Shown here: one piece after another, positions 1 to 37,119 of the stretch
Numbering within the stretch: position 1 is the first letter of the stretch
How the letters are laid out: the number at the start of each line of letters is the position of its first letter
From: Mycobacteriales bacterium
Lineage (GTDB): Bacteria; Actinomycetota; Actinomycetes; Mycobacteriales; Mycobacteriaceae
Assembly (NCBI GenBank): GCA_018376445.1
Contig: JAHABL010000001.1
Location: forward strand, 278,111-342,110
Direction of reading: 5' to 3'
Length of the DNA stretch: 64,000 nucleotides
Program-made: the position numbers and the translations under genes
The notes under the pieces: model-generated
Told to the model about the DNA's origin: nothing
The model's input: the letters and a program-made list of their open reading frames with translations, nothing else
Database searches by the model: none

Positions 1-1585
1 GGGTGGGGAAATCGATCGCAGCGAACGGCAAAGGAGGCACGATAACCTTGATCTGTTCTTCGGTGACTTTGAGATAGAAGGGGACGACGGGGTCTTCGTC
101 AATGTTTTCCGCGAGGAAGGCATCCAGGGCAGGGTCTTGAGCGCGCTGTTCGAGGACCTCGGGGGGGAATGAGCAAAGCGGCTTTGTAGTAGCGAGGTTC
201 GTCATCTAGGCCGAAGGCGCGGCTGAACAGGCGTTGCGATAAGGGGCTTGCGAGGCGTCCGTAGGCGGTGGCGATGGTCATGTGGTAGGTGCGGCCAGTT
301 CCCCAGGCGTTGTGGGGTCCGCCCGCTTCGGCGTCTTCCGAAGTGTTGTAGACGGTGGCTTCTACCGGGTGGCTCGTGGCGGCATAGGCGAAGTGGGGAA
401 GTTTTACGCGCACATTCTGTTGCCGTAGAGGCGGCCTTCGTAGCTGTAGGGTGAGGGGTCGGCGAGAGTGTCGGACGTCCGGTCGGTAGGGCTGTTGTTG
501 AGGATGGTGCCTTGTAGTGGTTGCCCGGTGGCGGTGAAGCCCCATTCCTCGTCGAGCAGCATCTTGTGCCAGTAGCCGGTGTGGCCGGCGTGCTCCCCTT
601 CGACGCGCAGTTCGCGGTTCTCGGCGCCGGGTGCAGTGGAGTGGATGGAGATCCGGTCGGTGATGGTGCCAGGGATCTTACTGTGGTGTAGCCATTCCTG
701 TGGGGGTAATTTGATGGGGGCGGTGCGGAAGTTGATGCGGTGTTCTTTCCAGGAGCCGCTTCCTTTGCGTTCGGGTTTTCCTACCCACGTGTAGCGGAAT
801 TGGGCAGGGTCGCCGCCGGCGAGGTCAACGTCGTAGAGGCGGGTGTACATGTCCCCGTACTTGTTGGTGATGAAGGTGGTGGAGGCGGCCGACGACAGGG
901 AGTGGACGAGGAAGCGGCAGTCCTCGGGGGTGCCGACCTCGTAGGAGTAGTCGCGGGTGAGCCAGGGGTCGCAGGAGATGATGTGTTGTCCGTTGCCGGC
1001 GAGGAAGAGTACTTGGGTGAGTCCGGCGAAGGAGACGGGGTGAACGCGACCGTCACCGTCGATGTAGGTTTGGTCCTCACTGGCGCTGATGACGGAGAGC
1101 ACCCATTGCCCAGGGGTGGTGTTGGCAATTTGGAAGCCGTCGAAGATTCGGCCGGGCCCGCCCCAGGCGCGGATCCACACGAACTCTTCGGGTTCTTTGA
1201 GGGTGCCTTTCATGGTGTAGAGCCAGCCGTCTGCGTCAACACCTACTAGACGGTCGGCATCGAGGGAGATTCCGATGAGAGTATCGTCAAAGCCTTCCGG
1301 CATGGGGGCGTAGCGCCACGGTTCGTCTGTCTCTCGGTGGCGCATGTAGAGGGTGCCGTCGAGAAGGGTCATTTCCCAGTGCCGGTTGAAGCTGGAGGTG
1401 TTGTCCCGTAAATCGATGCGGGTGGGTAGCCGCGGGTCGGTCGCTACAGGGAGGTCTGCGAAAGGCTGTTGGTAGCTGAGGTCCGTGTCGTCTTTGATGC
1501 GGACGGGGATGATGGTGTTGGGGCCGTCACTGGTGGGGCGGAAGGGCGTATTTGGGTGCGGGGTACGTCCGGGGGTAGTCGTCAT
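1..1585 (-). pseudogene. Decayed paralogue of the downstream secreted-protein gene. The reading frame is broken at least twice (near 425-440 and at the G7 tract 161-167). The 3' end runs off the window.
   Basis: ORFs 404..1585, 99..545 and a third frame from 205 downward each align in turn with consecutive parts of the 1898..3583 protein (RVDMRDNTSS.., ITNKYGD.YTR.., LPHFAY.., NPALAAF..). The frame shifts occur within otherwise collinear homology. No signal peptide is present. Confidence 0.5.
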
Positions 1586-7448: not shown

Positions 7449-8300
7449 TTAGTCGCCACGAAGTGCCGCAGCAGCTTCCTCGACGAGGTGTGGTGCGCCA
7501 GCGAGTGTCCATATTTCCCCGGCTGCTTCAACGTCCTGTACGGCTCCACCGACTCCGAGGACGAGGGCGGCGCCGGGCAGGCGATCCCAGTCGGGGAGGC
7601 GGTGTTGCATCCACAGGTCGGTGTCGCCTTCAGCAACCGACGCGAGGTCGACAGAGGCGGAGCCCATCATGCGGTAGGTGGCGGAGCGGCCAATAACCCG
7701 CAGGAAAGCAGCGTAAATGTCGGGGTCTTGGTAGAAGGTGGGGTGTAGGTAGGTGTTGATGCAGGCGGCCGCCAGGTTGTCTCGGTGGGGTCGTCCGGTT
7801 TCTCCAAAGTGAGGGAGGGGTTGTCCATTGCGGGTGGTGGGGATGTTTGGGCCGCCCATCCAGAGCGTGTGGGTGCAGGGTTGGTAGACAGCGCCTGCGG
7901 TGACGTTTGTGGAGGGCGAGAGGTAGCGGTCGCGGTTACTGAACCGTGCAGGGTTGGTGGGGTCCTGTTCGGTGAAGGCGATGGCGGAGCACCAGTATTC
8001 GAAGTTGTTGGCGAAGTTGTAGGTGCCGTCAACGGGGTCGATGGTCCAGCGAGTTCCGCTGGTGCCGAGGTGGGTGGTGCCTTCTTCGCCGAATACTGCG
8101 TCGGCGGGGCGTTGGTCGTGGAGGGTGGTGACGACGTAGTCTTCCGCAGCGCGGTCGGCTTGTGTGACGACGTCGGAGATGGAAGTTTTGGTGTCGATGG
8201 TGAGGCCGCCCGCACGGAGAGAGAGGGCGAGGTTTCCGGCGGTGTGGACGAGGTTGGCTGCGAGATACAGATTGCTTGTCGTCGTGTTCACGCTTTCCAC
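7449..8300 (-). CDS. Second inositol monophosphatase family protein, a tandem paralogue of 6498..7346.
   Basis: WTIDPVDGTYNF and AVFGEEG motifs. Confidence 0.75.
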   Translation of the reverse strand: MESVNTTTSNLYLAANLVHTAGNLALSLRAGGLTIDTKTSISDVVTQADRAAEDYVVTTLHDQRPADAVFGEEGTTHLGTSGTRWTIDPVDGTYNFANNFEYWCSAIAFTEQDPTNPARFSNRDRYLSPSTNVTAGAVYQPCTHTLWMGGPNIPTTRNGQPLPHFGETGRPHRDNLAAACINTYLHPTFYQDPDIYAAFLRVIGRSATYRMMGSASVDLASVAEGDTDLWMQHRLPDWDRLPGAALVLGVGGAVQDVEAAGEIWTLAGAPHLVEEAAAALRGD

Positions 8301-8427
8301 GGTAGCGGCTTGCGCGGAGTTTTTCGAGGGCGTCTGGAGGAGAGGGGAGGAGGTAGGACAGAAGATTGGTCAGGGGATGTGCCCGGGGCGGGTAAGCGGG
8401 GGTGCGGCTCTGTAGTGAGGGCTGGTG

Positions 8428-9606
8428 CTAGTGGTGGATTTGCGTGACGAGGGTGACGAGCTGTGTCCGGTTGAGTTTGCCGTTGCTGCGGTGTGGTAGT
8501 TGGGGGAGGTAGATGACGTTTTTGGGAATGGAGTAGTGGCCGAAGGTGGGTTCGAGCAAGGCGTTGAGTTCTTCCAGTGTGGGGGCTGTGGTGGCGTTGG
8601 TGGGGACGATAACGGCGGTGACGCACTGTCCGAAGTGCGGGTGGGGGAGGCCGATAACAGCACATTCCTTGACGCCGGGATGGGTGTAGAGTGCGGCTTC
8701 TAGGGGTTGGGGGATGACGATGATGCCGCCGCTGTTGATGGCCTCGTCGAGGCGTCCGTCGATGATGAGGCGTCCGGCGTCGTCCCAATGACCGAGGTCG
8801 TGGGTGTGGTACCAACGTTGGCCGTCGTCGTAGGTCCAGTCGGGGTGGGTGGCCTTTCCCACGTATCCGTCGGCGAGGGTGGCTCCGCTGATGCTCACTC
8901 GGTGGGTGGTGGGATCGATGCGGAGCTGAGTGGCGGGGCCGGGGCGGCCGTTGAAGAGCACTCCGCCAGCGACTTCGGAACTGCCGTAGCCGCGCACGAT
9001 AGTGAGTCCTGCGCGGGTGAGGAAGGTGTTGATGTGATCGGGGAGGGGAGCGCCACCGGAGAGGATCGCGTCGAGGTGGGAACAGGAAGCGAGGGCTTCT
9101 TCTGCAATGCGTCTGGTGGGGAGGTGGGAGGAGTGGAGGCCGTGGTAGAGGGTGTCGAGTTGGCTTGGGACGAGTGAGGCGTAGTGGCGTCGGTGCGAGG
9201 TGGTGCTGCCGTCGCGGAGTTCGGCGATGGCGGCGGGGAGATCCGCTAGGTGGAAGCCATTCTCTATGGGGATGGTGACAGGGTCGTATCCGGCGTGGAG
9301 GCTGCGGAGGAGGACTTGCATGCCGATGATGTGGTGGGCGGGGACGGCGAGGAGCCAGCGTCCGGGGCCGCCGAGTGCCGCGTGGGTGCTGTCGATGGCG
9401 GCGCGGAGTGCGGCGGCGGAGAGGCGGGCACCTTTGGGGGTTCCGGTGGTGCCGGAGGTGGCCATGATGAGGGCGCTGCCGGGAGAAGGGTGTCCAACGA
9501 AGTGTCTGTGCAGGCGCTCGGCCTCGGAGGGGTTAGGGGGGAGGGCGAGGAGTGGCGGGGTGGTGCCGTGGAGGCAGTCTCGCAGTACAGGGTAGATTGA
9601 GGCCAT
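8428..9606 (-). CDS. AMP-dependent synthetase/ligase, short form (o-succinylbenzoate-CoA ligase MenE-like). The ORF track extends to 9828. The likely start is MASIYPVL at 9606.
   Basis: ATSGTTGTPKGARLS P-loop-like AMP-binding motif. About 390 aa. Further motifs: GYGSSE, IDGRLDEAINSGG. Confidence 0.65.
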   Translation of the reverse strand: MASIYPVLRDCLHGTTPPLLALPPNPSEAERLHRHFVGHPSPGSALIMATSGTTGTPKGARLSAAALRAAIDSTHAALGGPGRWLLAVPAHHIIGMQVLLRSLHAGYDPVTIPIENGFHLADLPAAIAELRDGSTTSHRRHYASLVPSQLDTLYHGLHSSHLPTRRIAEEALASCSHLDAILSGGAPLPDHINTFLTRAGLTIVRGYGSSEVAGGVLFNGRPGPATQLRIDPTTHRVSISGATLADGYVGKATHPDWTYDDGQRWYHTHDLGHWDDAGRLIIDGRLDEAINSGGIIVIPQPLEAALYTHPGVKECAVIGLPHPHFGQCVTAVIVPTNATTAPTLEELNALLEPTFGHYSIPKNVIYLPQLPHRSNGKLNRTQLVTLVTQIHH

Positions 9607-9698
9607 GTGGGCGTATGGAGGTAGCGGTAATGCTTCGATGAGGTCCTGCACAGCGCCATTATTGAACAGTGTGTAGGAGAATGCAATATGCTCGCTAT

Positions 9699-10862
9699 AT
9701 GACCACCCGCAACCATGCGCAGACCTCGCCGCAGCAGAGTGCACTTCACTCCTCACAGCGCGTCTCACACCTCGCCCCGGAAATCCCGATTGTTCGCCAG
9801 GACACGCCGCGGTCAGCCGCCCACACATTCATCGATCTAGCTAGCAACGACTATCTGGGATTAGCGAGACATCCGCGCGTACAGACCGCCGCACATCAGG
9901 CAATCGACCAGTGGGGTGTCGGAGCAACAGGCTCTCGGGTCGTCGCTGGTACTGTCCCGCCGCACCATTGCTGTGAAGCGAAACTCGCCGGCTTTCTCGG
10001 TTTCCCTGCCGCGCTGCTCTTCTCCTCGGGATACCTTGCAAATCTGGCAGCCATTACTGCGCTCGTCCCGTCGGGAGCCACTCTGATTTGCGACACCCGC
10101 AACCATGCCAGCCTGATCGACGCCTGCCGCCTCACCACAGCTCCCCGCATCATCTGTGATGTGACGAAGCCGCAGGAACTTGCCGCCGCACTCCAGCAGG
10201 CGACCTCCTCAGTCGTTGTCTGCGATGTTGTGGACTCCACCGATGGTAGTGTGCTCGACATCCCCTCGATTTACCACGCCACTCATGCGGCAGGTTCGCT
10301 GCTCATCGCTGATTTCGCACACGGGCTCGGAGTGCTGGGACACGATGGGCGAGGCGCGCTTCCCACGCTGTGGACGAATGGACAGGCGCCAACAGATCTC
10401 GTCATCACCTGCACCCTTTCTAAAGCTCTGGGGAGTCAAGGGGGAGCAGTACTATGCTCGGCGGAGCAACGGCAACATTTGGTCAATACCGCCCGCTCCT
10501 TCATCTTCGATACTGCCCTCGCACCTGCCTGTGCTGCTGCCGCCACCACCGCACTGGAGATTATCGCTAGTGAACCGACACGCGTTGAGAGGCTCCACCA
10601 GCACATGTCAGCGTTAACGAACGCTCTCGATCTCCCTTCGGTCACTGCTGGAGTAGTTGCCATCCCCCTGGGTGATCCCACACGTGCTATCGCCGTTCAC
10701 CGTACGGTGCTCTCCGCTGGAGTAGGGGTGGGGTGCTTCCGTCCGCCAAGTGTGCCGTGGCAACGAAGCGGATTGCGGTTAGGGGGTCGAGCTGACCTCT
10801 CGGCTGAACAGTTGATCCGCGCCATTACCGTGTTGCGAGACGCACTTCAACAGGGGAATTAA
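9699..10862 (+). CDS. bioF: Class II aminotransferase, 8-amino-7-oxononanoate synthase (BioF)-like. Divergent from the ligase gene.
   Basis: NDYLGL, SSGYLANLAAI and TLSKALGSQGG (PLP-lysine region) motifs. Start taken at MTTRNHAQ. Confidence 0.65.
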   Translation: MTTRNHAQTSPQQSALHSSQRVSHLAPEIPIVRQDTPRSAAHTFIDLASNDYLGLARHPRVQTAAHQAIDQWGVGATGSRVVAGTVPPHHCCEAKLAGFLGFPAALLFSSGYLANLAAITALVPSGATLICDTRNHASLIDACRLTTAPRIICDVTKPQELAAALQQATSSVVVCDVVDSTDGSVLDIPSIYHATHAAGSLLIADFAHGLGVLGHDGRGALPTLWTNGQAPTDLVITCTLSKALGSQGGAVLCSAEQRQHLVNTARSFIFDTALAPACAAAATTALEIIASEPTRVERLHQHMSALTNALDLPSVTAGVVAIPLGDPTRAIAVHRTVLSAGVGVGCFRPPSVPWQRSGLRLGGRADLSAEQLIRAITVLRDALQQGN

Positions 10863-11007
10863 TAATTGTTGCCAAAGTTTCCGGAATTTATCTGAGTTAT
10901 TGTTAGCGACGTAGCGTCCAGCCTGCGCAAATGCTGAAGAGCCTAAAGTTGTCCAAAATGCCAACCGTGTCTTGGGAGCGGAATAAATCCGCCTTTAGTA
11001 TGTCGGC

Positions 11008-11529
11008 ATGAGCAATACCGACAATCTTCCTATCGTCTACTTCCTCGGTGCCAACAACGTCGAGAAGAGCGCAATGGCGGAAGCGATCACCAACGCCCGC
11101 CATGGAAACCTCTTCAAGGCCTACTCTGCCGGTACGAACTGTGAACCGGATCTCCCACGGGATGCAGATTGTGTCGCCGCCTGTGCCGAAGCCGGCATTA
11201 CCCTTGACGGCGTCTCCACCCCCGTTGATGAAGAACTTTTCCGCAACGCCAATCTCGTCATCATCGTCTCCCGCAAGATGATGATCGATCCGGTACCTGG
11301 AATGAAAGGCATCATCCTTCGCTGGGGAGTTGATGAACCCGCCGACACCGGCATTTCCGGCCGCGAACGCGCCAACCTGCTGCGCGACTACCTCATTCGG
11401 CGTGTCGACGCCCTTGCCGTCGGAGCCATGACCAGCGATGGTACCCTCCGTTCCGGTTACCGCGGAGAAGATATCCTCGACCAAACCGGTGGGCAGAAGT
11501 CCAGTCGTCGCCTCACCGGCGTGAAGTAA
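11008..11529 (+). CDS. ArsC/low-molecular-weight phosphotyrosine phosphatase-fold protein that lacks the catalytic Cys and Arg. Probably a pseudo-enzyme.
   Basis: IVYFLGANNVEKSAMAEA aligns with the CX5R P-loop VxFxCTGNSCRSQMAEG (C to G, R to K). KAYSAGT and the ADLVIxV-like segment are conserved. The antisense ORF 10903..11538 is rejected. Confidence 0.6.
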   Translation: MSNTDNLPIVYFLGANNVEKSAMAEAITNARHGNLFKAYSAGTNCEPDLPRDADCVAACAEAGITLDGVSTPVDEELFRNANLVIIVSRKMMIDPVPGMKGIILRWGVDEPADTGISGRERANLLRDYLIRRVDALAVGAMTSDGTLRSGYRGEDILDQTGGQKSSRRLTGVK

Positions 11530-20050: not shown

Positions 20051-20420
20051 GGGGCTGAACGGTTTCGACTGCGTATGTTGCGTCGGGAGAAGCGTGCCGG
20101 TGCAGGCTAGAGACCACCGTGAGCGTCGTAGCAAACTATTAAGCGCCGAAAATACTCAGCGCGACTACGCTCTCGCTGCCTAATAGCGACGGCTAGTCTG
20201 TGGGCCCGGAAGTGTCTCCGATCCGGTGTTTTCCCACATCATCAAGGGGGCTTACTGTGAGCTGCGGCTACGGCAGCCTACAGGACATCTAACAGTGGCT
20301 GGGTTCGCCTTCTGGACTTGTGAGCGTGTTCCAGAGAACCGAGTAATGGTGTAGTTCACTGCGCACGGAGAAGTCCTGTCAAAGCTGCGGAGGACCCGGG
20401 TTCGATTCCCGGCAGCTCCA
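20051..20420 (+). ncRNA. ssrA: tmRNA (ssrA). The predicted tag peptide is AENTQRDYALAA (tag ORF 20145..20183).
   Basis: 5' end GGGGCTGAACGGTTTCGAC and 3' T-arm/acceptor GGGTTCGATTCCCGGCAGCTCCA. Near-collinear with mycobacterial tmRNA. Tag coding region GCC GAA AAT ACT CAG CGC GAC TAC GCT CTC GCT GCC TAA. Confidence 0.9.
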
Positions 20421-20556
20421 CAATATGGAAATTCCCAGGTCATTAACGACCTGGGAATTTCTTTATCTTTGCTGGTAGTTGCATGTTTTCATCTTAACCC
20501 CTTGTGGACAGTTTGGGACACCTTTAGACTCAGTTTTGGCACGTTTTTGGCGGCAG
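20421..20556 (+). repeat. Copy 1 of the attP/integrase-proximal repeat. It includes a 13-bp-stem hairpin (AAATTCCCAGGTC..GACCTGGGAATTT, 20428..20460) that functions as a replacement terminator for the tmRNA.
   Basis: Direct comparison with 30231..30366. Confidence 0.75.
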
Positions 20557-20644: not shown

Positions 20645-21073
20645 CTACCGGTTCCGATCCTTAAAATCGACCTTCACCCCAAGCTTATCGGCGAGTTCAT
20701 AACCATCAATATGCAGGCCATCATAAAGACGATCACCCATACCGATAGCATCCAGGAAAGCCTGCAAATCATCCTTAGATTTGAAGCACAATCCAGTCCA
20801 GAAACCTGCATCGACAGCAAACTTGAACCTAGACCGCTCGGCCTTGTTCCTCTCAACAAAACCGGAATAGGCCTCACCCATCTTCTCGGCAATATCCTTC
20901 AGATCCTTTTCCAGATCACCAGACTCGCCAACACCCTCAATGGGGTTCTTGTGCGGGTTGGTGTAGGGAATCTCTGTAGAACCATTGGCAGACTTTCCTC
21001 CGCCGAAACCAGTCTTACCACTACCGAAACCCTTAGACTTGGACGAACTCATAGCGCATAAACTCCATTTCAA
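20645..21073 (-). CDS. Hypothetical protein with a Gly-rich N-terminus. It overlaps the upstream PP-loop gene and is probably co-transcribed with it.
   Basis: 142-aa ORF in the low-GC segment. No known motif. Confidence 0.45.
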   Translation of the reverse strand: MKWSLCAMSSSKSKGFGSGKTGFGGGKSANGSTEIPYTNPHKNPIEGVGESGDLEKDLKDIAEKMGEAYSGFVERNKAERSRFKFAVDAGFWTGLCFKSKDDLQAFLDAIGMGDRLYDGLHIDGYELADKLGVKVDFKDRNR

Positions 21074-21872
21074 CAGCGGGGAAATACTTCAATACCTGGT
21101 CATAATCATCTGGCAGCTTATCCCGCAAAGGCCTCACAAACCGGTAGTCCAAACCATCAAAAGTCCTACCGAAAAGCTCATAATCAACAGGCAGCTTCAC
21201 CTTATTGATCTCAAGACAGCGCCGAATGTCCTTGATTTTCCAGTCATGAACAACATGCGCATACCGCTTAGCAAAAGCCCGCCCATTACTTCTGGCAATG
21301 GAATCAGTCCACGGTGAATGCTTCTGGATTGACACACGACGCTGGATACTATCCGCACACCGGATACCATCACACAACCACGTATCCTTCGGCAGCCCCT
21401 GCCATTCTTTGAATGCATCCCACAATTCATCATGGCCAATAACCCCCAATTCGGCAGACTGATTAATCGAAATCTGCCAGGGAGCCTGGAAAACACCACG
21501 ATCCAAGTAGTACCAAAAATCGCGATGAGGAAGATTGAAAATCCGCATCTGGAAGAAATCCTCAAAATACTTCAAGGAGTCTTCCTCAAACTTCAACCCA
21601 GGCACCCGATACAAATGCACCGGAATAACCTCAACCCCTGCTGCCAAAAGCGCAATCATCGCGCAAATAGAATCCTTACCGCGCGAAAATGACACAATAA
21701 CAGGCTTACCTGAGCTAGCAAGACGCTCTCGCATATGTATAGAAGTTTCGACAGCCCCAGACATGGGATCCTTACTCTTCTTATAGATCAGATCAGGCTC
21801 AATCCCATCAATCCGCCAACGATTACTCACCATAACTTCACTATGCCACGGCAGAGAACTATTTCTTCCCAA
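21033..21872 (-). CDS. Phosphoadenosine phosphosulfate reductase family (PP-loop ATP pyrophosphatase, DndC/IbrA-like) protein.
   Basis: PP-loop motif VSFSRGKDS. Size and conserved blocks (e.g. WLCDGIRCADSIQR) match the phage and island-borne PAPS-reductase-like family. Confidence 0.75.
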   Translation of the reverse strand: MGRNSSLPWHSEVMVSNRWRIDGIEPDLIYKKSKDPMSGAVETSIHMRERLASSGKPVIVSFSRGKDSICAMIALLAAGVEVIPVHLYRVPGLKFEEDSLKYFEDFFQMRIFNLPHRDFWYYLDRGVFQAPWQISINQSAELGVIGHDELWDAFKEWQGLPKDTWLCDGIRCADSIQRRVSIQKHSPWTDSIARSNGRAFAKRYAHVVHDWKIKDIRRCLEINKVKLPVDYELFGRTFDGLDYRFVRPLRDKLPDDYDQVLKYFPAVEMEFMRYEFVQV

Positions 21873-30157: not shown

Positions 30158-30230
30158 GGGGCTATGGCGCAGCTGGTAGCGCACCACACTGGCAGTGTGG
30201 GGGTCACGGGTTCGAGTCCCGTTAGCTCCA
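30158..30230 (+). tRNA. tRNA-Ala (anticodon GGC).
   Basis: Manual fold gives a 7-bp acceptor stem with G3:U70, anticodon loop CTGGCAG and T-loop TTCGAGT. CCA is not encoded. Confidence 0.9.
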
Positions 30231-30366
30231 CAATATGGAAATTCCCAGGTCACTAATGACCTGGGTTTTTCTTTATCTCTGCTGGTAGTTGCATGTTTTT
30301 ATCCTAACCCCTTGTAGACAGTTTGGGGCACCTTTAGACTTAGTTTTGGCACATTTTTGGCACAGA
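30231..30366 (+). repeat. Copy 2 of the attP/integrase-proximal repeat. It contains the hairpin CCCAGGTC..GACCTGGG-TTTTT (30244..30270).
   Basis: See 20421..20556. Confidence 0.75.
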
Positions 30367-30381
30367 CTAGTGAGGTGCACC

Positions 30382-31626
30382 ATGGCAGCGGGAGAGTTCG
30401 GCAACACTAGACAACTCCCCTCAGGTAGGTGGCAGGCGCGCTACAGATACAGGGGGCAAGACTATAAAGCTCCCGAAACCTTCAAAACTAGGAAGATAGC
30501 CGAAGGGTGGCTCAGTCACGAAAAGAAACTTATCGACCTTAACGCATGGATACCACCACAAGAGCGCCTAGCCCTCCAGGAGAAACACCAGCAGGAGATG
30601 GAGTTAACCGTGGGGTTATGGCTCGAGCAATTCCACGACAGTCTACGAGACGCTAAAGCCTCCACCCTGCAAACATATAGGCGGACCATCACTAATAGGA
30701 TCCTTGACCCTGTTGCGCCGGGCAATGAGGTGGAGGACATTACCCGGCTTAGAGACATTCCCCTGGTGGAGTTGACGAAACAGGACGTTTACCAGTGGTG
30801 GGATGCTATTGAGCGCACCTACGACACGCCTGAGACGAATAGGAAGGCCTACCGGAGGTTGAAAGCCGCGGGGCGAGAGGCTGTGGAAAGGGAGCTTATA
30901 GGGAGTAACCCTGTGAATGTTCCCGCAGCGAATAAGAGTGTGGCGAAAGATTCACCTTATCTTCCCAAGACGGAGGAGCTGCATAAGATTCTGACGGAAG
31001 TCCCGGCACGCTATCGGCTTATTACCGCCCTCATACTGTTTCACGGCCTGCGTATCGGAGAGGCGATCGCCCTGGAGGTGGATAGTGTTGTCGCCCATGA
31101 CACCACGGGAGGGCACCGTTACGGGGTCCGGGTGAAACAGAATGCGCAGAGGATTACCCCGCCGGGGAAGTCTACATTCATGCTGGTGCAGCCTCCTAAG
31201 AGTAGGGCAGGGAATAGGGAGGTGCCGATTATGCCCGAGTTTATTCCCCTCCTGGAGGAGCACCTGGACAAGTATGTGGCCGAGTCTCCTACGGTAGTGC
31301 GTTTGTCTAAAGAATTTGGGGGCGGTACCCGCCCGGCGCAACTGCTGACGACGACGGGGGCGGGCTTAATGGTGATGGATACGTCCTACCGTAGCGTGCT
31401 GAAACGTGCCACGGAGCGGGCGGGGGTGTCGCCTTTGATTAAGCCGCATAGCGGGCGTAGGTGGTTGGTGACAACGTTGGCGGAGCACGGGGCGCACGTG
31501 AAGGAAATTTCGCGGATTCTCGGAGATGAGGACTTGGAGGTGATTATGTCTATCTATATGCAGGTGAGGGCAGAGAGAACAACAGAACTCATGGATATTG
31601 TCAGCAAGTCGGTAGCGCGGGGATAG
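30382..31626 (+). CDS. int: Tyrosine-type site-specific integrase.
   Basis: N-terminal SAM-like/arm-binding region (GRWQARYRYRG..). C-terminal catalytic residues (R..HxxR..Y: LRIGEAIALEVDSV, HSGRRWLVTTL, IMSIYMQV). Start at ATG 30382 with RBS gaggtg. The upstream ORF extension lies inside the repeat and is rejected. Confidence 0.9.
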   Translation: MAAGEFGNTRQLPSGRWQARYRYRGQDYKAPETFKTRKIAEGWLSHEKKLIDLNAWIPPQERLALQEKHQQEMELTVGLWLEQFHDSLRDAKASTLQTYRRTITNRILDPVAPGNEVEDITRLRDIPLVELTKQDVYQWWDAIERTYDTPETNRKAYRRLKAAGREAVERELIGSNPVNVPAANKSVAKDSPYLPKTEELHKILTEVPARYRLITALILFHGLRIGEAIALEVDSVVAHDTTGGHRYGVRVKQNAQRITPPGKSTFMLVQPPKSRAGNREVPIMPEFIPLLEEHLDKYVAESPTVVRLSKEFGGGTRPAQLLTTTGAGLMVMDTSYRSVLKRATERAGVSPLIKPHSGRRWLVTTLAEHGAHVKEISRILGDEDLEVIMSIYMQVRAERTTELMDIVSKSVARG

Positions 31627-31630
31627 CGGC

Positions 31631-32452
31631 ATGAAACGGCATATATGGCGTAGTGAGTGGGCCGAGGAAAACGTTGGGTTTGCAGTCATGGTTATGGACG
31701 GCGACTACCCTATGGGCCGGTTAATTATTTGTGGCACGCCTAGAGAGATACTGGTAGAGAACGCTATCTTTGTGGGGGAAAAGTGGACCGATAGGCGACC
31801 AGAAGTTTTTACTCCCCGGCGTAGAACAGAGGTCACTCGTATTCGAGCTAAAGGTGAAGACTATCGACGGCAAATTAAAGAGGAAACCAAAAAAATAGGT
31901 GACTGTGAGCAACATTTTCTCGTGTTTCCTGATTTTGAGGTGCGCAACAGAAAACTAGACCCACTCATATATAAAGTCATACAAGATGGTCACCTTGTCG
32001 TGGAGTACAGCTTTATTAAACATGTGGTTGACAGTGGGCTTATTAACCACATTTGCGATTCATGGACAGATGAAGAAAGACGGGAGTATCTGTTTTATCG
32101 AACTCTGATACATATCCTAGACGGGGACAAAATTATGGGCATTATAGAAGGTTACAAGGGGGGGAAATTTATCGTTTTCGACACTCACGATATGTCTGAA
32201 TGGTATGCCAGGTCTTCTTCTCGTACTTGGGCACCAGCTGAAGAAGATAGGGGAATGCGGGCAGAGCACGTAAAAGGTAAAGGGAGATTGTCTGGCAGTA
32301 TTCGTTTCCCCGATTTCTGTATTGAGCGTGAAGAACTCTACCAGCTAATTTCCCGGTACTTATTCCCCAGTGGTCTAACAGGCAGTGACTTTTTTAAAGT
32401 GCAGTATGACACTTTGAAAGAACTGGTTGAGCATGGACGCATGAATAAATAG
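31631..32452 (+). CDS. Hypothetical protein of 273 aa encoded by a markedly low-GC gene. It is orphan cargo between int and xis.
   Basis: Clean ORF, AT-rich relative to its flanks. No recognisable motif. Confidence 0.6.
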   Translation: MKRHIWRSEWAEENVGFAVMVMDGDYPMGRLIICGTPREILVENAIFVGEKWTDRRPEVFTPRRRTEVTRIRAKGEDYRRQIKEETKKIGDCEQHFLVFPDFEVRNRKLDPLIYKVIQDGHLVVEYSFIKHVVDSGLINHICDSWTDEERREYLFYRTLIHILDGDKIMGIIEGYKGGKFIVFDTHDMSEWYARSSSRTWAPAEEDRGMRAEHVKGKGRLSGSIRFPDFCIEREELYQLISRYLFPSGLTGSDFFKVQYDTLKELVEHGRMNK

Positions 32453-32679
32453 AACAATATGGGTCCCATTAGTACTGTTGGTGTGTTATTGTGGCGTCGG
32501 CGTTGGAATACAGTGTGACCCGTCCACTACCTCCGACAATAGCCACTCACGTGGTGCATAAACGGGAACAAAGCAAGCTCTGTATCTTGCTTAGGCGCTA
32601 ATTGGGCGCTTTGACCTTGAGGCTCTGCGAATAGCGGGGCGGATACCTCGTGCTTTGAGGTAGAAAAGGTCAGACATAA

Positions 32680-32874
32680 ATGTCTACTCCAACTCGCCAC
32701 TATGTTTCTATCCGTGAAGCCGCTGACTACTGGTCTGTCTCCACGAAAACGATTCGCCGGTGCATTAACCGGGGAGAACTCACAGGCTACTACCCCTGTG
32801 GTAGGACTCTACGCCTCGATCTCAATGAGCTAGAGGCAATTGCACAGGCTAACGCCACTCGTAAGGTGGCGTAA
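32680..32874 (+). CDS. xis: Excisionase / AlpA-like helix-turn-helix DNA-binding protein.
   Basis: 64 aa. YVSIREAADYWSVSTKTIRRCINRGEL is a typical MerR/Xis HTH. Confidence 0.7.
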   Translation: MSTPTRHYVSIREAADYWSVSTKTIRRCINRGELTGYYPCGRTLRLDLNELEAIAQANATRKVA

Positions 32875-32878
32875 GGGC

Positions 32879-33463
32879 ATGGAGACAAAAGAATACCCCG
32901 CCGTAAGCGGGGCACCTTCGAGCACTCTTCAATCATACCCGGTAGGCGTAACAGAAACTGATACTGCTCCTGCTACCGGTATCCTTGCCGTCAGACCACA
33001 GCTAGACACAGTTTTCTTGACTGCTCTTCTCCATGCGGGGAACCGGGGGAAAACTGTTCTGGAACATGTAGACGCTACAGACTTCCATAACCCGGTCTAC
33101 GGTGACCTGTACGAGAGAATAAAGGCCGTCGCCGCTACAGGTGACCTCACGCACCTACGAGTGTGGGGCACGCTCACTGCAACCCGCTGGACTGAGGACT
33201 CTTACTGGCATGGACGAGTCCTAAACCTTGTTGCGCCGGGCAGTGGCGGCTATGAGGATATCGCACTCGCTGCTGCTCAGCTGGTGCAAGGCTCACTGCG
33301 TCACCGTGTGTTTAATCTAGGCGTGGAGTTGCGACAGGCGGCCTGTGAGAGGTCGCTAGAGGAACTTATGGTGTTCCTTGCTGACTCTGCCCGCATGGAG
33401 ATGATTCGTGCGACTGTGGCGCGTCTAGAGACCCTTACAGCGCTTACAGGGGGTGCAAAGTAA
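32879..33463 (+). CDS. Protein resembling the DnaB helicase N-terminal domain, probably a replication-initiation accessory.
   Basis: DTVFLTALLHAGNRGKTVLEHVDATDFHNPVYGDLYERI resembles the DnaB N-terminal domain. Translationally coupled to the next gene (ATGA overlap at 33463). Confidence 0.5.
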   Translation: METKEYPAVSGAPSSTLQSYPVGVTETDTAPATGILAVRPQLDTVFLTALLHAGNRGKTVLEHVDATDFHNPVYGDLYERIKAVAATGDLTHLRVWGTLTATRWTEDSYWHGRVLNLVAPGSGGYEDIALAAAQLVQGSLRHRVFNLGVELRQAACERSLEELMVFLADSARMEMIRATVARLETLTALTGGAK

Positions 33464-34950
33464 TGACTACCCCCGATACCACTACCGACACCACAGAGAC
33501 GCGGAGAAGCTGCCTTGTGAGGGCTACTGATATGGCACTGCCTAAACGCCGCAAGTGGATAGTGCCAGGACTATTGCCCCTCGGTTGCCTTGTGTTCCTA
33601 GCTGGTGATGAGGGCATTGGCAAAAGTACTTTCGGGCTACACCTTGCAAGTGTCATCACCAGTGGCAAAGGTGACACCGGTCTCAAGATTCCCGCCGGAA
33701 ACGCCCGGCGCGTATATCTCTACAGCACAGAAGATAATTGGGGTGACACTACTAGTCCGGCGCTCAAAGCAATGGGCTGTGATTTTGAAAATCTCTCACT
33801 CTTTTTCGACGACACAGACGGCACGTCTTATCCGAGCTTAGGGGCCAACGTCATCAAAGATATGTACGAAGACTCTGAGTGTTATGGTGCCCCGGCACTG
33901 ATCATTGTGGATAACTTTATTGACACTCTCCCCGCCAATGTTCAGCAGAGTAAACCCGAGCAGTTGAGGAGTGTTCTAAAACAATGGGTCAAGATAGCGA
34001 AACGGCTTAATGCCACTGTGTTGTGTCTTCATCACACGAACAGGTCAGGGTCTGACAATAGCCGCGACCAGTGGGCGGGCAGCAGCGAATACCGTAAAGC
34101 TGCCCGTGTTGCTCTGATGGCTAAAGACAATGAGGACGGCACCTTTACCGTAGGCGTGGATAAGTGCAATCTGTCACCAGAGAGACGCGCCGTCATCATG
34201 AAGAACATGTCCACTTCCACACCCTTGCTCTATGAGGGAGAAGAGAAACCCGAAACTGTAGAGTCCCACACAGTTGACTATGTGGGAGAGTCTGACAGGT
34301 CCATTGCTGAGCTTGTGGAAGATAAAGCCGATGACGATACGGGCGGGGATGAAAGGACTGAGACTCTCAGAGCCTTCCTTCTCTCTCTCAGTGCCCATAG
34401 TGGAAGTGCCACTCGTAGGGAATTGTGTAATGGCCTCAAGGACGAGGGCTATTCCGACAGGAAGATAAAACAAGCTATCAAGACGGCTAAGAGTCGCCAT
34501 TTCGTTGACTCGGACAGGTCAGGGTTTCAGGGTGAAACAACATTCGCTCTCACAGTCGCAGGGCGTGACATTCTCCAAAATGTCCACTTGGCTGCCCAAA
34601 ATGGTCACCAAAATGTCCAAAATAAAACAGCAGGTCAGCCCCAAAATGTCCAAAATGTCCAACATGTTCACCCCTATAGGGTGACTAAGGGCAATGCGGC
34701 GGCAAAAAAGTCCCCCGGCACTGTCTCACAGGGCAGTGATTCTGGGGCTCTCCGCACTTGGCTAGTAGATGGTCTGAGTGTTGAGCAGTCGCAGGGCGTG
34801 GAGTCTCTCTATGGGCAACTGCCCCGCTCTCTCCGTGACTCTCATAGCCGGGACAGTGTGAAGGAAGTTTTGGACTCCATGGTTGAGAAAGGCAATGTGG
34901 TGAAGGACTCTCACGGCCGTTATCTGAAGGCGGGTGAAACTTTGTTTTAG
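33463..34950 (+). CDS. RepA-like RecA-fold ATPase (AAA_25 / primase-helicase-associated) replication protein with a C-terminal wHTH-like region.
   Basis: Walker A GDEGIGKST. Walker B ALIIVDNFID. LCLHHTNRSG. A C-terminal QNVQ-rich segment is encoded by the iterons. Confidence 0.7.
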   Translation: MTTPDTTTDTTETRRSCLVRATDMALPKRRKWIVPGLLPLGCLVFLAGDEGIGKSTFGLHLASVITSGKGDTGLKIPAGNARRVYLYSTEDNWGDTTSPALKAMGCDFENLSLFFDDTDGTSYPSLGANVIKDMYEDSECYGAPALIIVDNFIDTLPANVQQSKPEQLRSVLKQWVKIAKRLNATVLCLHHTNRSGSDNSRDQWAGSSEYRKAARVALMAKDNEDGTFTVGVDKCNLSPERRAVIMKNMSTSTPLLYEGEEKPETVESHTVDYVGESDRSIAELVEDKADDDTGGDERTETLRAFLLSLSAHSGSATRRELCNGLKDEGYSDRKIKQAIKTAKSRHFVDSDRSGFQGETTFALTVAGRDILQNVHLAAQNGHQNVQNKTAGQPQNVQNVQHVHPYRVTKGNAAAKKSPGTVSQGSDSGALRTWLVDGLSVEQSQGVESLYGQLPRSLRDSHSRDSVKEVLDSMVEKGNVVKDSHGRYLKAGETLF

Positions 34951-35045
34951 GGCTATGTAAGTGAACAAGTTGGACATTTTGGACATGTTGGCCGTGACCT
35001 GCTGTTTTACTGTGACCATTTTGGTGGACATTTTGTGGACATTTT
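34566..35045. repeat. Iteron array. Four direct copies of CAAAATGTCCA lie at 34566-34670, within the 3' end of the rep gene. At least three inverted copies of TGGACATTTTG lie at 34966-35045, just past the rep stop. This is a probable origin of replication or rep-binding site.
   Basis: Repeats read directly from the sequence in both orientations, about 290 bp apart. Confidence 0.6.
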
Positions 35046-35211
35046 GGGCGGCTTCAGTGTTGAAATGGCCTAATGGTTAAGAAGAGAGAGACCCCTAGGT
35101 GTATTCCCGGGGGTCTCTTTCTGTGTGCCTGTTGCGCCGGGCAGGTGGTGGAGGTTGAGGTGAGGTCAGGACTTTACCCCGAAATCGGGGAAAACGTTCC
35201 CCCTGAGTGGT

Positions 35212-35345
35212 GAGGTGGTGTTCCGCCACCCCATGGGCGCAAGGAGGTGGTGTTCTGCCACCCCCCTAGTGGGTGCAGGGGTGCGGTATTCCGCCGCCCC
35301 CTTATTTTTAGCGAGGTGAAAGGGGGTCGGAATTTGCGACACCCT
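35212..35345. repeat. Three to four tandem degenerate GC-rich palindromic repeats of about 22 bp (GGTGGTGTTCCGCCACCCC-like) in an 880-bp non-coding stretch of the island.
   Basis: 35212-35232, 35254-35275 and 35279-35302, with a weaker copy at 35323-35345. Each can form a GGTGG/CCACC hairpin. Confidence 0.5.
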
Positions 35346-35982
35346 TTATGGGAGCCGTTTTAAGCCGCTTTAGGGATACTCCATGAGTGGAGTGGCGCGG
35401 GAGGTGGGAAAAGTGTCCGAGAATTGATTTGAGGGCCAAATAGAGGGGTGCAGACGATGGAATAATGGAGTGCTATCCCATCTATGCGGGTAGCTGGTGG
35501 GGTATGGCCTAAAAATCACCAGAAACACACACTCGGACCACTTCACGCCGGTTAGTCGTCCTTTCCCCCCGCACTGGGTAGGGGGGTATTCCGTATCTAG
35601 GCCATTTCCTCATAGATGCCCCTGAGAGCCACGTAGAGGAGCAAATACATTTGCCTAGGCAAATCACACATAGAACGAAGAGAAATAGCCTTAAAAACGT
35701 TTATAGAGCCTGAAATATTACCCGGGGGGGGTAGAGCTGCTAAGCCCATGGGATGCTTGGGGTGTGGGGTGGGGGTGGTCCCCGTGGGGTGTGTGCTGTA
35801 TCCGCTATAGAAACCACGTCTGCTAGGGAAACTGCTAAACCTGTACTCAACCAAAGCGCCTAGGCCATACGGGCTTATGTGGTGTGGGGGCGGGGGTAGT
35901 GGCCCTGGTGACGGATGGAGTAAACCCCCACCACTACAGGTAAGCAGCAGCAGGGGTTTAATCTTTGGTGTGGATACTATCG

Positions 35983-36210
35983 TTACCAGGTTTCCTGGTA
36001 GTGGTGTTCTAGGACATGGTTGACGCAGGTTCTCACTACCTGTTCGCCGTTGTAGCCGTTGCGTGTGATCGCCTTTGCGGCATAGTCGAGAACACTGGTG
36101 AGTTCCTCACTGGTGAGTGGCCGGGTTCCAGGGTAGGGGGAGCCTTTGGGCATCGACATGTATAGGTAGACCTGTGCAACCGACGCATAGATGAGTTCTG
36201 GGAGTGTCAT
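35983..36210 (-). CDS. Hypothetical small protein, the distal gene of a two-gene operon at the island right end.
   Basis: 75-aa ORF overlapping the upstream stop (ATGA). Confidence 0.4.
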   Translation of the reverse strand: MTLPELIYASVAQVYLYMSMPKGSPYPGTRPLTSEELTSVLDYAAKAITRNGYNGEQVVRTCVNHVLEHHYQETW

Positions 36211-36896
36211 TATTCGCCTTTAATGGTTGCTTGTGCGTAGTCGTCGAGGTCATGCTGCCACCTAGCTCCGAGGAGGGCGGTGAACTGTGTCAGGTGGGAG
36301 GCAGTGTTGCTGGAGGCTACCTGCCCGTCTTTATCGTGGAGGAGGATGAGACCCTCACCAGTAGGCGAGACACCAAGGTAGAGGGTGAACGCGCCTAGAT
36401 GGGCGACTCTTTGCCCGAGCCGGTAGCTGCCCATGTTAGCGAATGGTGTGATGTCGCAGTCATGCCAGGTTAGCTCGGTGAAGCTGCTAAGTCCGTGCCG
36501 GTAGCGGTTCACTAGCTCACTGTGCAGTCCTGGTGTGAGAGACAATTCGACAAGCATGTGAAGGGCGATAGTGTCGGAGTCTTCAAGGTGTGTGTTGCCG
36601 CCCCACAGGCTGGCTGCTATCTCCCTAGCCCTCTTTGTTTTGGCGGGGGTGAGGGTTTCTTCCACTAGGTAGCCGTAGCAGTCATTGCCGGGTGCCTTGT
36701 CGATGTCTCGCATGAAGACCATGGCAAGGTCTATGGGGGTGCGCCGTGCTGTGGGGTTGGTGAGGATTTCGGTGAAGAGGACGGGGAGAAAATCGGGGTA
36801 TTCCACTTTTACTTCGTCCATAATGGGTGTGTCCATGTGGTCTTCCTTTTCTGGCAGTTTTGAAAACTTTGGCATATTTTTGGCACGCGCTCGCAT
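36210..36896 (-). CDS. Hypothetical protein. A shorter start at MDTPIMDEV near 36836 is possible.
   Basis: 228-aa ORF on the opposite strand from the rest of the island, next to attR. Confidence 0.5.
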   Translation of the reverse strand: MRARAKNMPKFSKLPEKEDHMDTPIMDEVKVEYPDFLPVLFTEILTNPTARRTPIDLAMVFMRDIDKAPGNDCYGYLVEETLTPAKTKRAREIAASLWGGNTHLEDSDTIALHMLVELSLTPGLHSELVNRYRHGLSSFTELTWHDCDITPFANMGSYRLGQRVAHLGAFTLYLGVSPTGEGLILLHDKDGQVASSNTASHLTQFTALLGARWQHDLDDYAQATIKGE

Positions 36897-36946: not shown

Positions 36947-36965
36947 GAGCCCCGTTAGCTCCACA
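36947..36965 (+). repeat. attR, a direct repeat of the tRNA-Ala 3' end.
   Basis: GAGCCCCGTTAGCTCCACA versus tRNA 30214..30232 GAGTCCCGTTAGCTCCACA. Confidence 0.8.
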
Positions 36966-36971
36966 GAGTAT

Positions 36972-37004
36972 AAAACCCCTGGTCAGAAATGACCAGGGGT
37001 TTTG
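36972..37004 (+). terminator. Probable original terminator of tRNA-Ala, now displaced to lie after attR.
   Basis: AAAACCCCTGGTC-AGAAAT-GACCAGGGGTTTT. Confidence 0.6.
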
Positions 37005-37119
37005 TTTATTTTCCTGCTTCATTACATAGTTTTGCGCACTCCCGTCACCTCTCATGAGCACCATTGTGAGGCACAATACGATGTAAATTGTGGAATTTTG
37101 GCGAAAATTGGGCGTTAGG

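Follow-up and report, generated by a model that had tools for sequence, protein, structure and literature searches.

What is encoded by the AT-rich open reading frame (ORF) that lies between the integrase gene int and the Xis/AlpA-like gene xis of a small element in the genome of a skin actinobacterium? The ORF, here called ORF273 after its 273 codons, was analysed within a 64-kb window, that is, the whole stretch of DNA under study, and coordinates refer to positions in that window. ORF273 resides in an integrative island of approximately 6.75 kb at a tRNA-Ala gene of a Lawsonella (Corynebacteriales) genome and is a rapidly diversifying core gene of that island. Its product is tentatively read, at somewhat less than even confidence, as a nonenzymatic binding or adaptor protein that is comparable with IOLG of PICMI, the 'minimalist' phage satellites of Vibrio, and that would help the island itself to excise and become active. 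Lawsonella is abundant on skin as a commensal but barely tractable, and virtually no description exists, to our knowledge, of its mobile elements. The island family is likewise an undescribed, PICMI-like one, in which ORF273 turns from a presumed 'defence moron' into a core gene coupled to the integrase.

The compositional contrast reported in the initial annotation, which was made from the DNA letters, is borne out by measurement. The GC content of ORF273 is 0.445 (0.431 at third codon positions, GC3), against 0.558 for the integrase gene (GC3 0.653), 0.52–0.56 for the rest of the island, and 0.55–0.60 for host genes (GC3 0.63–0.67); the mean of the 64-kb window is 56.8%. Among all segments of 822 nucleotides in the 64 kb, ORF273 falls within the lowest 0.3% (z = −3.3), with the 300-nucleotide GC minimum (0.407) at 31900–32199. 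More than 12 distinct intact alleles, together with in-frame diverged alleles at 55%–57% identity, establish that the ORF is coding. A close allele, MBS6414002.1 (252 amino acids, from a shorter start), is listed at NCBI as a 'hypothetical protein'.

The absence of a recognisable domain, also remarked on at the outset, withstands profile and structure searches: ORF273 matches no family in Pfam-A, NCBIfam, PHROGs, or PADLOC (with zero families at E ≤ 1 in PADLOC-DB 2.0), has no robust sequence match in the PDB, and matches no known fold. A match to TIGR03704 scores 14.6 bits against a cut-off of 248.8 bits and is attributed to chance. Searches of 5.8 billion clustered proteins and 1.8 billion representatives yield as relatives a 96%-identity cluster, a 271-amino-acid form (55%–57% identity), and a 129-amino-acid protein; a further match, P0004 (888 amino acids, 12 matched stretches), is a translated tandem repeat and spurious. 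The family profile recovers seven clusters only, and all source names attached to them are Lawsonella. No relatives outside Lawsonella occur in GTDB representative genomes or IMG/VR, GenBank phages hold no match for ORF273 or for p208, a protein encoded at the island end, and JGI metagenomes add just one further copy, 92% identical. ORF273 belongs to a genus-restricted orphan family.

Each of these database relatives lies directly behind the integrase gene of an island of the same type. Contigs encoding the exact Xis protein or p75, another product of the island end, give 20 more island copies, and in every related island recovered (approximately 25, loci L001–L025), the slot between int and xis is filled, by a gene for 273, 271, 185, 180, 162, or 129 amino acids. 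All slot genes are AT rich (GC 0.445–0.496), and none has a Pfam match. The 273/271/129 group is homologous to the 162/180/185 group by profile–profile comparison (hhalign, 97.5%, E = 6.5e-12), and the slot proteins have in common the motifs V-x-V-x-D-G-x-Y-x-M-G, R...RRQ(I/L), (V)VFPDF-x-(I/V)...KL-x-P, and (I/V)-(E/Q)-Y..L. A homologous gene thus occupies the slot of all related islands recovered, which identifies it as a core gene of the island family rather than chance cargo. The initial annotation was correct in placing the ORF directly behind an integrase gene (PF00589) and before xis (PF12728) in a small integrative element, and homologues are found solely in this mobile island family. 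Its description of the gene as a 'moron' in a cargo position, however, gives way to that of a core gene, and the recent acquisition that had been deduced from composition is at odds with alleles at 28%–57% identity that are all AT rich; low GC is therefore an old family trait, not a sign of recent arrival.

The islands consist of conserved ends and a mosaic middle, of which ORF273 is the first gene. In L003, which occupies the same site with host flanks 100% identical, int is approximately 98% identical; identity drops to 55%–77% at the first codon of the ORF, returns to 97%–100% approximately 50 nucleotides before its stop, and remains high through the leader and xis. In L018 (same site, 162-amino-acid type, again with host flanks 100% identical and int approximately 98% identical), identity drops to approximately 50% at the first codon of the slot gene, and divergence extends through xis, the gene for a 194-amino-acid protein, the helicase gene, and the origin, and p75/p208 are again 97%–99% identical. 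Across island types, the end genes p75 and p208/228 are 97%–100% identical, and slot alleles reassort freely with helicase alleles. Pairwise ratios of nonsynonymous to synonymous substitution rates (dN/dS) are mostly 0.5–1.1 for the 273- and 271-amino-acid types (small counts), compared with 0.07–0.31, mostly around 0.1, for int. Among 12 distinct 273-amino-acid alleles, variable sites cluster in two sub-domains (Table 1) and include radical changes (Y175R, K176E, R194E, and R210W).

ORF273 itself is built of two modules. A profile of the single-module proteins aligns over nearly its full length with the C-terminal half of the 273/271-amino-acid proteins (hhalign, 92.4%, E = 5e-7), and pairs of motifs mark the two copies (VMVMDGDYPMG with IHILDGDKIMG, and VFPDFEV with RFPDFCI); ORF273 is therefore a tandem duplication of a module that is encoded once in other island types. 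Plain BLASTP does not find this internal repeat, which is seen by profile–profile comparison only. The duplication suggests that the single-module proteins act as dimers, and the 273-amino-acid form is, judging from these alignments, a predicted fused pseudo-dimer of the single module. An AlphaFold model of ORF273 based on a nine-sequence alignment is usable (pLDDT 71, pTM 0.70) and gives each module a sheet of three strands and, after it, a core of mixed alpha/beta structure. Residues invariant across the family are D23, Y26, M28, G29, L31, R72, R80, and Q81, and no catalytic-type residue is conserved; with this invariant set, the protein does not look like an enzyme. The natural allele series—one module, two modules, and hypervariable hairpins on a fixed core—offers a ready mutagenesis map.

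Two fold assignments were considered. Faint hints of an HNH endonuclease (an HNH_3-like beta-beta-alpha-metal fold with an 'H-x-DGD-x-x-NN' hairpin) do not hold up, since the family conserves neither a catalytic His nor a catalytic Asn. A winged-helix lead, to the domain DEP1 of DEPTOR (PDB 7dkl), aligns weakly with residues 65–155 (E = 0.0017–0.0048, with the single sequence and a four-sequence profile), and the order of secondary structures predicted by AlphaFold is compatible with a DEP domain; the match is lost with the nine-sequence and 162/180/185-amino-acid profiles, Pfam DEP gives no match, and no DEP structure appears among the fold matches, so the lead is deemed unreliable.

The slot gene is set tightly against int: its start lies four nucleotides beyond the int stop in the 273- and 271-amino-acid types and two nucleotides beyond it in the 180- and 185-amino-acid types, and the two genes overlap by ATGA in the 162-amino-acid type. 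No terminator or promoter consensus is present between int and ORF273, and this, with the tight spacing, points to co-transcription and probable translational coupling with int. The leader ahead of xis contains three consecutive hairpins that are preserved by compensatory changes in four island types (alignment A7). Within these hairpins, pairing holds in 86% of cells but in no more than 55% once the partners are slid, and eight pairs carry double changes, a count matched by none of 500 shuffles. The presence of G·U wobbles in the sense strand points to a leader that works as RNA, perhaps an attenuator or terminator separating a constitutive int–ORF273 unit from the xis–replication operon.

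The closest architecture described so far, with a gene in the same position, is that of PICMI115 of Vibrionaceae, a 6,110-bp element whose six genes are int, iolg, alpA, up1, prim, and up2, with an ATGA overlap between int and iolg, the 'integrase-overlapping' gene (Barcia-Cruz et al. 2024, PMC10803314). In this element, int and iolg are constitutive; alpA, up1, and prim make up the early regulon that the helper induces; and when iolg is deleted, helper-induced excision and transduction are lost, with an excision complex of Int, IOLG, and AlpA being proposed by the authors (PMC10803314). Most of the 35 PICMI subfamilies carry iolg or an 'integrase-contiguous gene' (icg), and these genes fall into 13 unrelated families with no function assigned (PMC10803314).

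The Lawsonella island has the same gene order (int, X, alpA, one gene, a replication gene, and the end gene or genes) as well as the same size and strand organisation. Like iolg/icg, ORF273 is a same-strand gene contiguous with the 3′ end of int (its 162-amino-acid sibling overlaps it) and upstream of alpA/xis in an element of around 6 kb; it is likewise without a known domain and very diverse between otherwise similar elements, and iolg/icg, too, are found in most elements. By position, coupling to int, and diversity, ORF273 would correspond to iolg/icg. It differs in that one homologous family fills the Lawsonella slot as against 13 unrelated families, in its duplicated two-module form, and in its actinobacterial host; the excision role has been demonstrated for PICMI115 iolg only, to which ORF273 is likened by position. 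The six-gene Vibrio layout, enigmatic int-attached gene included, thus recurs in an actinobacterium with unrelated proteins, and if ORF273 shares the role of IOLG, this class of gene becomes testable in two independent systems.

The SatelliteFinder model for PICMI combines an integrase (PF00589, PF00239, or PF07508), AlpA (PF05930 or PF12728), a primase (PF13148, DUF3987, or PF19263, DUF5906), and a location next to fis (PMC10803314). The island carries the integrase (PF00589) and AlpA (PF12728) markers and lies, in place of fis, at the 3′ end of a tRNA-Ala gene or, in siblings, of the tmRNA gene; by analogy of layout, it can be called PICMI-like even though two of the four published markers are lacking. 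With PICMI, PICI, and P4-like satellites in general it shares a small integrative form, int with an AlpA/Xis-type helix-turn-helix (HTH) protein, its own replication protein with an iteron origin, mosaicism, and large noncoding stretches; it differs from them in having no capsid-remodelling, terminase, or other packaging genes. The content of Mycolicibacterium EPIP satellites (PMC12822802), which were also considered, is unrelated to that of the Lawsonella island.

If the likeness to IOLG extends to function, ORF273 would, in the quiescent state, share a transcript with int and probably be coupled to it in translation, and would, without enzymatic activity, join Int and Xis/AlpA in excision and activation. 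Its conserved core (the D-x2-Y-x-MG hairpin, R...RRQ, and VFPDF...KL.P) would contact a conserved partner, and its two hypervariable beta-hairpin sub-domains would contact a variable one, which could be the variant of Xis or a product of the helper phage. The way in which excision is tied to helper infection in minimal satellites is explicitly named as an open question (PMC10803314).

Several observations count against this IOLG-like role. ORF273 alleles differ by up to 72% where Int (98% identical) and the att sites are the same, and such divergence is awkward for docking to Int or att DNA, unless the conserved motifs alone dock. In PICMI115, an int deletion is complemented by int alone and an iolg deletion by int/iolg only, and no function is assigned to IOLG itself (PMC10803314). 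Searched with profiles, the same sets of 5.8 and 1.8 billion proteins, in which NCBI and UniRef are included, return Lawsonella relatives only and show no homology between ORF273 and Vibrio IOLG; the link is one of architecture only, and ORF273 therefore fits the iolg/icg positional class and is not a homologue. In place of the PICMI primase marker (DUF3987/DUF5906), the island has an AAA_25 protein. The satellite lifestyle is hypothetical: the island has no packaging gene, and no evidence of a helper phage or of packaging emerges from phage records and IMG/VR, in which ORF273, p208, and int have no match and the helicase has no close match. The attP junction expected of the excised island (...TTAATTATGGAG[C/T]CCCGTTAGCTCCACAATATGGAAA...) has no match in JGI metagenome contigs.

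A narrower variant of the excision role, to which we give low confidence, is that the ORF273 family represents a new fold and an integrase-coupled excision 'gatekeeper', the core of which would dock Int/Xis and the hairpins of which would read helper identity, in functional convergence with IOLG. Were this so, int, X, and alpA would make up a general, independently evolved satellite control module extending from Proteobacteria to Actinobacteria, and with this island, Actinobacteria would gain their first PICMI-like satellite family.

It is also conceivable, if unlikely, that ORF273 is a master repressor or immunity protein resembling Stl of the SaPIs. Expressed with int in the quiescent state, such a protein would silence the xis–replication operon via the leader or promoter downstream and would be inactivated by helper-phage proteins at its variable sub-domains. 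Stl, like ORF273, adjoins int and is hypervariable (PMC6695447, PMC5779228), and it is likewise a proposed sensor of helper-phage proteins. The island contains no other repressor candidate, and p75 and p228, being constant, cannot be the specificity determinants. Palindromes or hairpins upstream of xis are conserved in position and change in sequence with the slot and xis type; the 273-, 271-, and 129-amino-acid types have a conserved core and the same leader in common; and a probable dimerising module, fused as a pseudo-dimer, would suit palindrome binding. Stl, however, has an N-terminal HTH and is divergent from the str–xis operon, whereas no HTH or other DNA-binding domain is detected in ORF273, which is near neutral (isoelectric point 6.5) and in tandem with the xis operon. 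Furthermore, the sense-strand wobbles in the leader hairpins favour RNA structure over operators, and loss of the positional analogue in PICMI abolishes excision rather than de-repressing it (PMC10803314).

Still less probable is a role in antiphage defence, as the initial annotation had proposed, or in helper interference. ORF273 would then be a binding protein, expressed constitutively, by which a phage component is sensed or blocked, and an arms race would account for its variable surfaces. Elevated dN/dS, clustered radical substitutions, and the swapping of alleles between otherwise near-identical islands agree with such a role, as does the richness in AT, which is typical of genes that are exchanged horizontally; a protective gene would be expected to be expressed along with int while the island is quiescent, and satellites are known to carry defence genes (PICMI UP2, P4, and PICI hotspots; PMC10803314). 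Neither the ORF nor its neighbours, however, give a defence-family signal: ORF273 has no PADLOC match, and among the neighbours, PADLOC-DB 2.0 reports merely weak AbiEi-type winged-helix matches, at the C terminus of the AAA_25 protein. ORF273 also lacks an enzymatic or effector domain, conserved catalytic residues, and a partner gene. In PICMIs, excision requires the gene found in this place, and defence cargo is located in the interval from prim to the att site, at the other end of the element (PMC10803314). True hotspots hold unrelated cargo, whereas one homologous family fills this slot in all islands. In genome annotation, an AT-rich orphan beside an integrase gene is not to be presumed defence cargo.

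That the ORF is an irrelevant recent passenger, or an AT-rich stretch that acts as DNA only, for example, as a binding site for xenogeneic silencers of the Lsr2/CgpS type, which target AT-rich DNA and are known in Corynebacteriales, is very improbable: the strong composition contrast with its neighbours and the relaxed constraint would fit, but no allele has a broken reading frame, alleles at 55% identity still show in-frame indels and strictly conserved amino-acid blocks, and the family is present in every island type with a nearly invariant core.

Table 1. Features of the Lawsonella island and of ORF273, in positions of the 64-kb window or, where stated, in residues (aa) of the protein.
Feature	Position	Strand	Remarks
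tRNA-Ala(GGC)	30158–30231		hosts attL core at 3′ end
attL core	30214–30232	+	3′ end of tRNA-Ala(GGC); island-borne terminator hairpin next, 30244–30265
int, tyrosine integrase	30382–31626	+	414 aa from conserved ATG; PF00589, 50.2 bits; mechanical ORF start 30289, likeliest start 30382
ORF273	31631–32452	+	ATG to TAG, 273 aa
ORF273 N-module	approximately aa 6–140		
ORF273 C-module	approximately aa 146–273		
ORF273 variable beta-hairpin sub-domains	aa 18–66 and 159–222		
ORF273 core	aa 67–145		nearly invariant
Leader between ORF273 and xis	32590–32670	+	three hairpins
xis, Xis/AlpA-like HTH_17	32680–32874	+	64 aa; PF12728, 33.8 bits against a cut-off of 27
194-aa protein	32879–33463	+	188–207 aa by start choice; no function assigned; position of PICMI up1
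AAA_25 RepA/helicase-like protein	33463–34950	+	495 aa; PF13481; PHROG matches restricted to the helicase part of primase/helicases
Candidate origin of replication	34572–35050		iteron arrays, inverted
Noncoding DNA	34951–35982		approximately 1 kb
p75	35983–36210	−	no family match
p208/228	36210–36836/36896	−	no family match
attR core	36947–36965	+	18/19 nucleotides same as attL; displaced original tRNA terminator next, 36970–37005

The island is delimited as attL/attR by a 19-nucleotide direct repeat at the 3′ end of tRNA-Ala, in which the last 18 nucleotides of the tRNA are repeated. A terminator-like hairpin stands behind both att repeats, which indicates that the island brings a new tRNA 3′ end and terminator and has pushed the original to attR. 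As for the host, exact-sequence look-up shows that the NadE encoded beside the island is identical to WP_296237859 from 'uncultured Lawsonella sp.' and that several island proteins occur in a metagenome-assembled genome named 'Corynebacteriales bacterium' at NCBI, which also holds MBS6414002.1, the closest allele of ORF273. The island family is common in assemblies of skin metagenomes: within the assembly collection, 109 indexed blocks contain its Xis product and 209 its p75 product.

Downstream of xis, the 194-amino-acid protein has a faint likeness to the DnaB N-terminal domain and to nothing else, and the AAA_25 protein is probably the island's replication initiator-helicase. The iteron CCAAAATGTCCA occurs in five copies at 34572–34670 and in reverse-complement copies at approximately 34969–35050, bracketing the end of the AAA_25 gene, and these arrays are a probable origin of replication. 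In loci L001–L022, the 12-nucleotide iterons differ with the AAA_25 allele (CCAAAATGTCCA with the 495-amino-acid form, CAACACTTTCAACA with the 445-amino-acid form, CAGTTGG(C/A)TCA with the 463/464-amino-acid forms, and CCCGGCAAAAC with the 460/476-amino-acid forms) and are independent of the slot allele. This covariation marks AAA_25 as the initiator and the island as self-replicating, and iterons and AAA_25 together have the appearance of a SaPI-like Rep–ori specificity module. ORF273 as the replication initiator, binding the iterons through two winged helices, is ruled out, since the iterons follow the AAA_25 allele and not the slot allele.

Within the noncoding DNA beyond the AAA_25 gene, a G+C-rich hairpin unit, GAGGTGGTGTTCCGCCACCCC, is present three times, at 35212–35300; a packaging site and a small RNA are both possibilities for these units. 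The segment 35200–35500 is missing from L003, and in L010, the end genes p75/p208 are replaced by three small ORFs (49, 101, and 87 amino acids; 9213–9924 of that locus).

A repeat, TTTGGCAC(A/T)TTTTTGGCAC, is found just within both island ends, at 30334–30363 upstream of int and at 36868–36886 upstream of p208, and probably represents either integrase arm-type sites flanking attP or a common operator of both end promoters.

Related islands also occupy other sites. Siblings L001, L002, and L004, whose integrases are 82%–85% identical, lie at the tmRNA 3′ end; L015 occupies a site between GlpR and DoxX-PMT, and alternative attachment sites are noted for L010, L016, L023, and L024 as well. Several contigs connect the GlpR-side flank with the NadE-side flank, which could reflect recombination of two co-resident islands, differing synteny, or assembly chimeras at the repeated island.

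The window contains a further trace of the family. Adjoining the tmRNA gene (20051–20421), the segment 20387–20551 is a copy, approximately 165 nucleotides long, of the island left end, 88%–90% identical to L001, L002, and L004 and without an integrase gene; it carries an att-like end, a hairpin, and TTTTGGCAC repeats at the tmRNA 3′ end and looks like what is left of a sibling island that integrates at tmRNA. Low-GC ORFs of 142 and 279 amino acids with no Pfam match come next, at 20645–21872 on the minus strand, and the longer one contains the motif SFSRGKDS. In L001, a complete MmeI-type restriction-modification gene (8282–11113 of that locus) lies directly outside attR of the tmRNA-site island, which makes the locus of the tmRNA gene a possible hotspot of tandem cargo.

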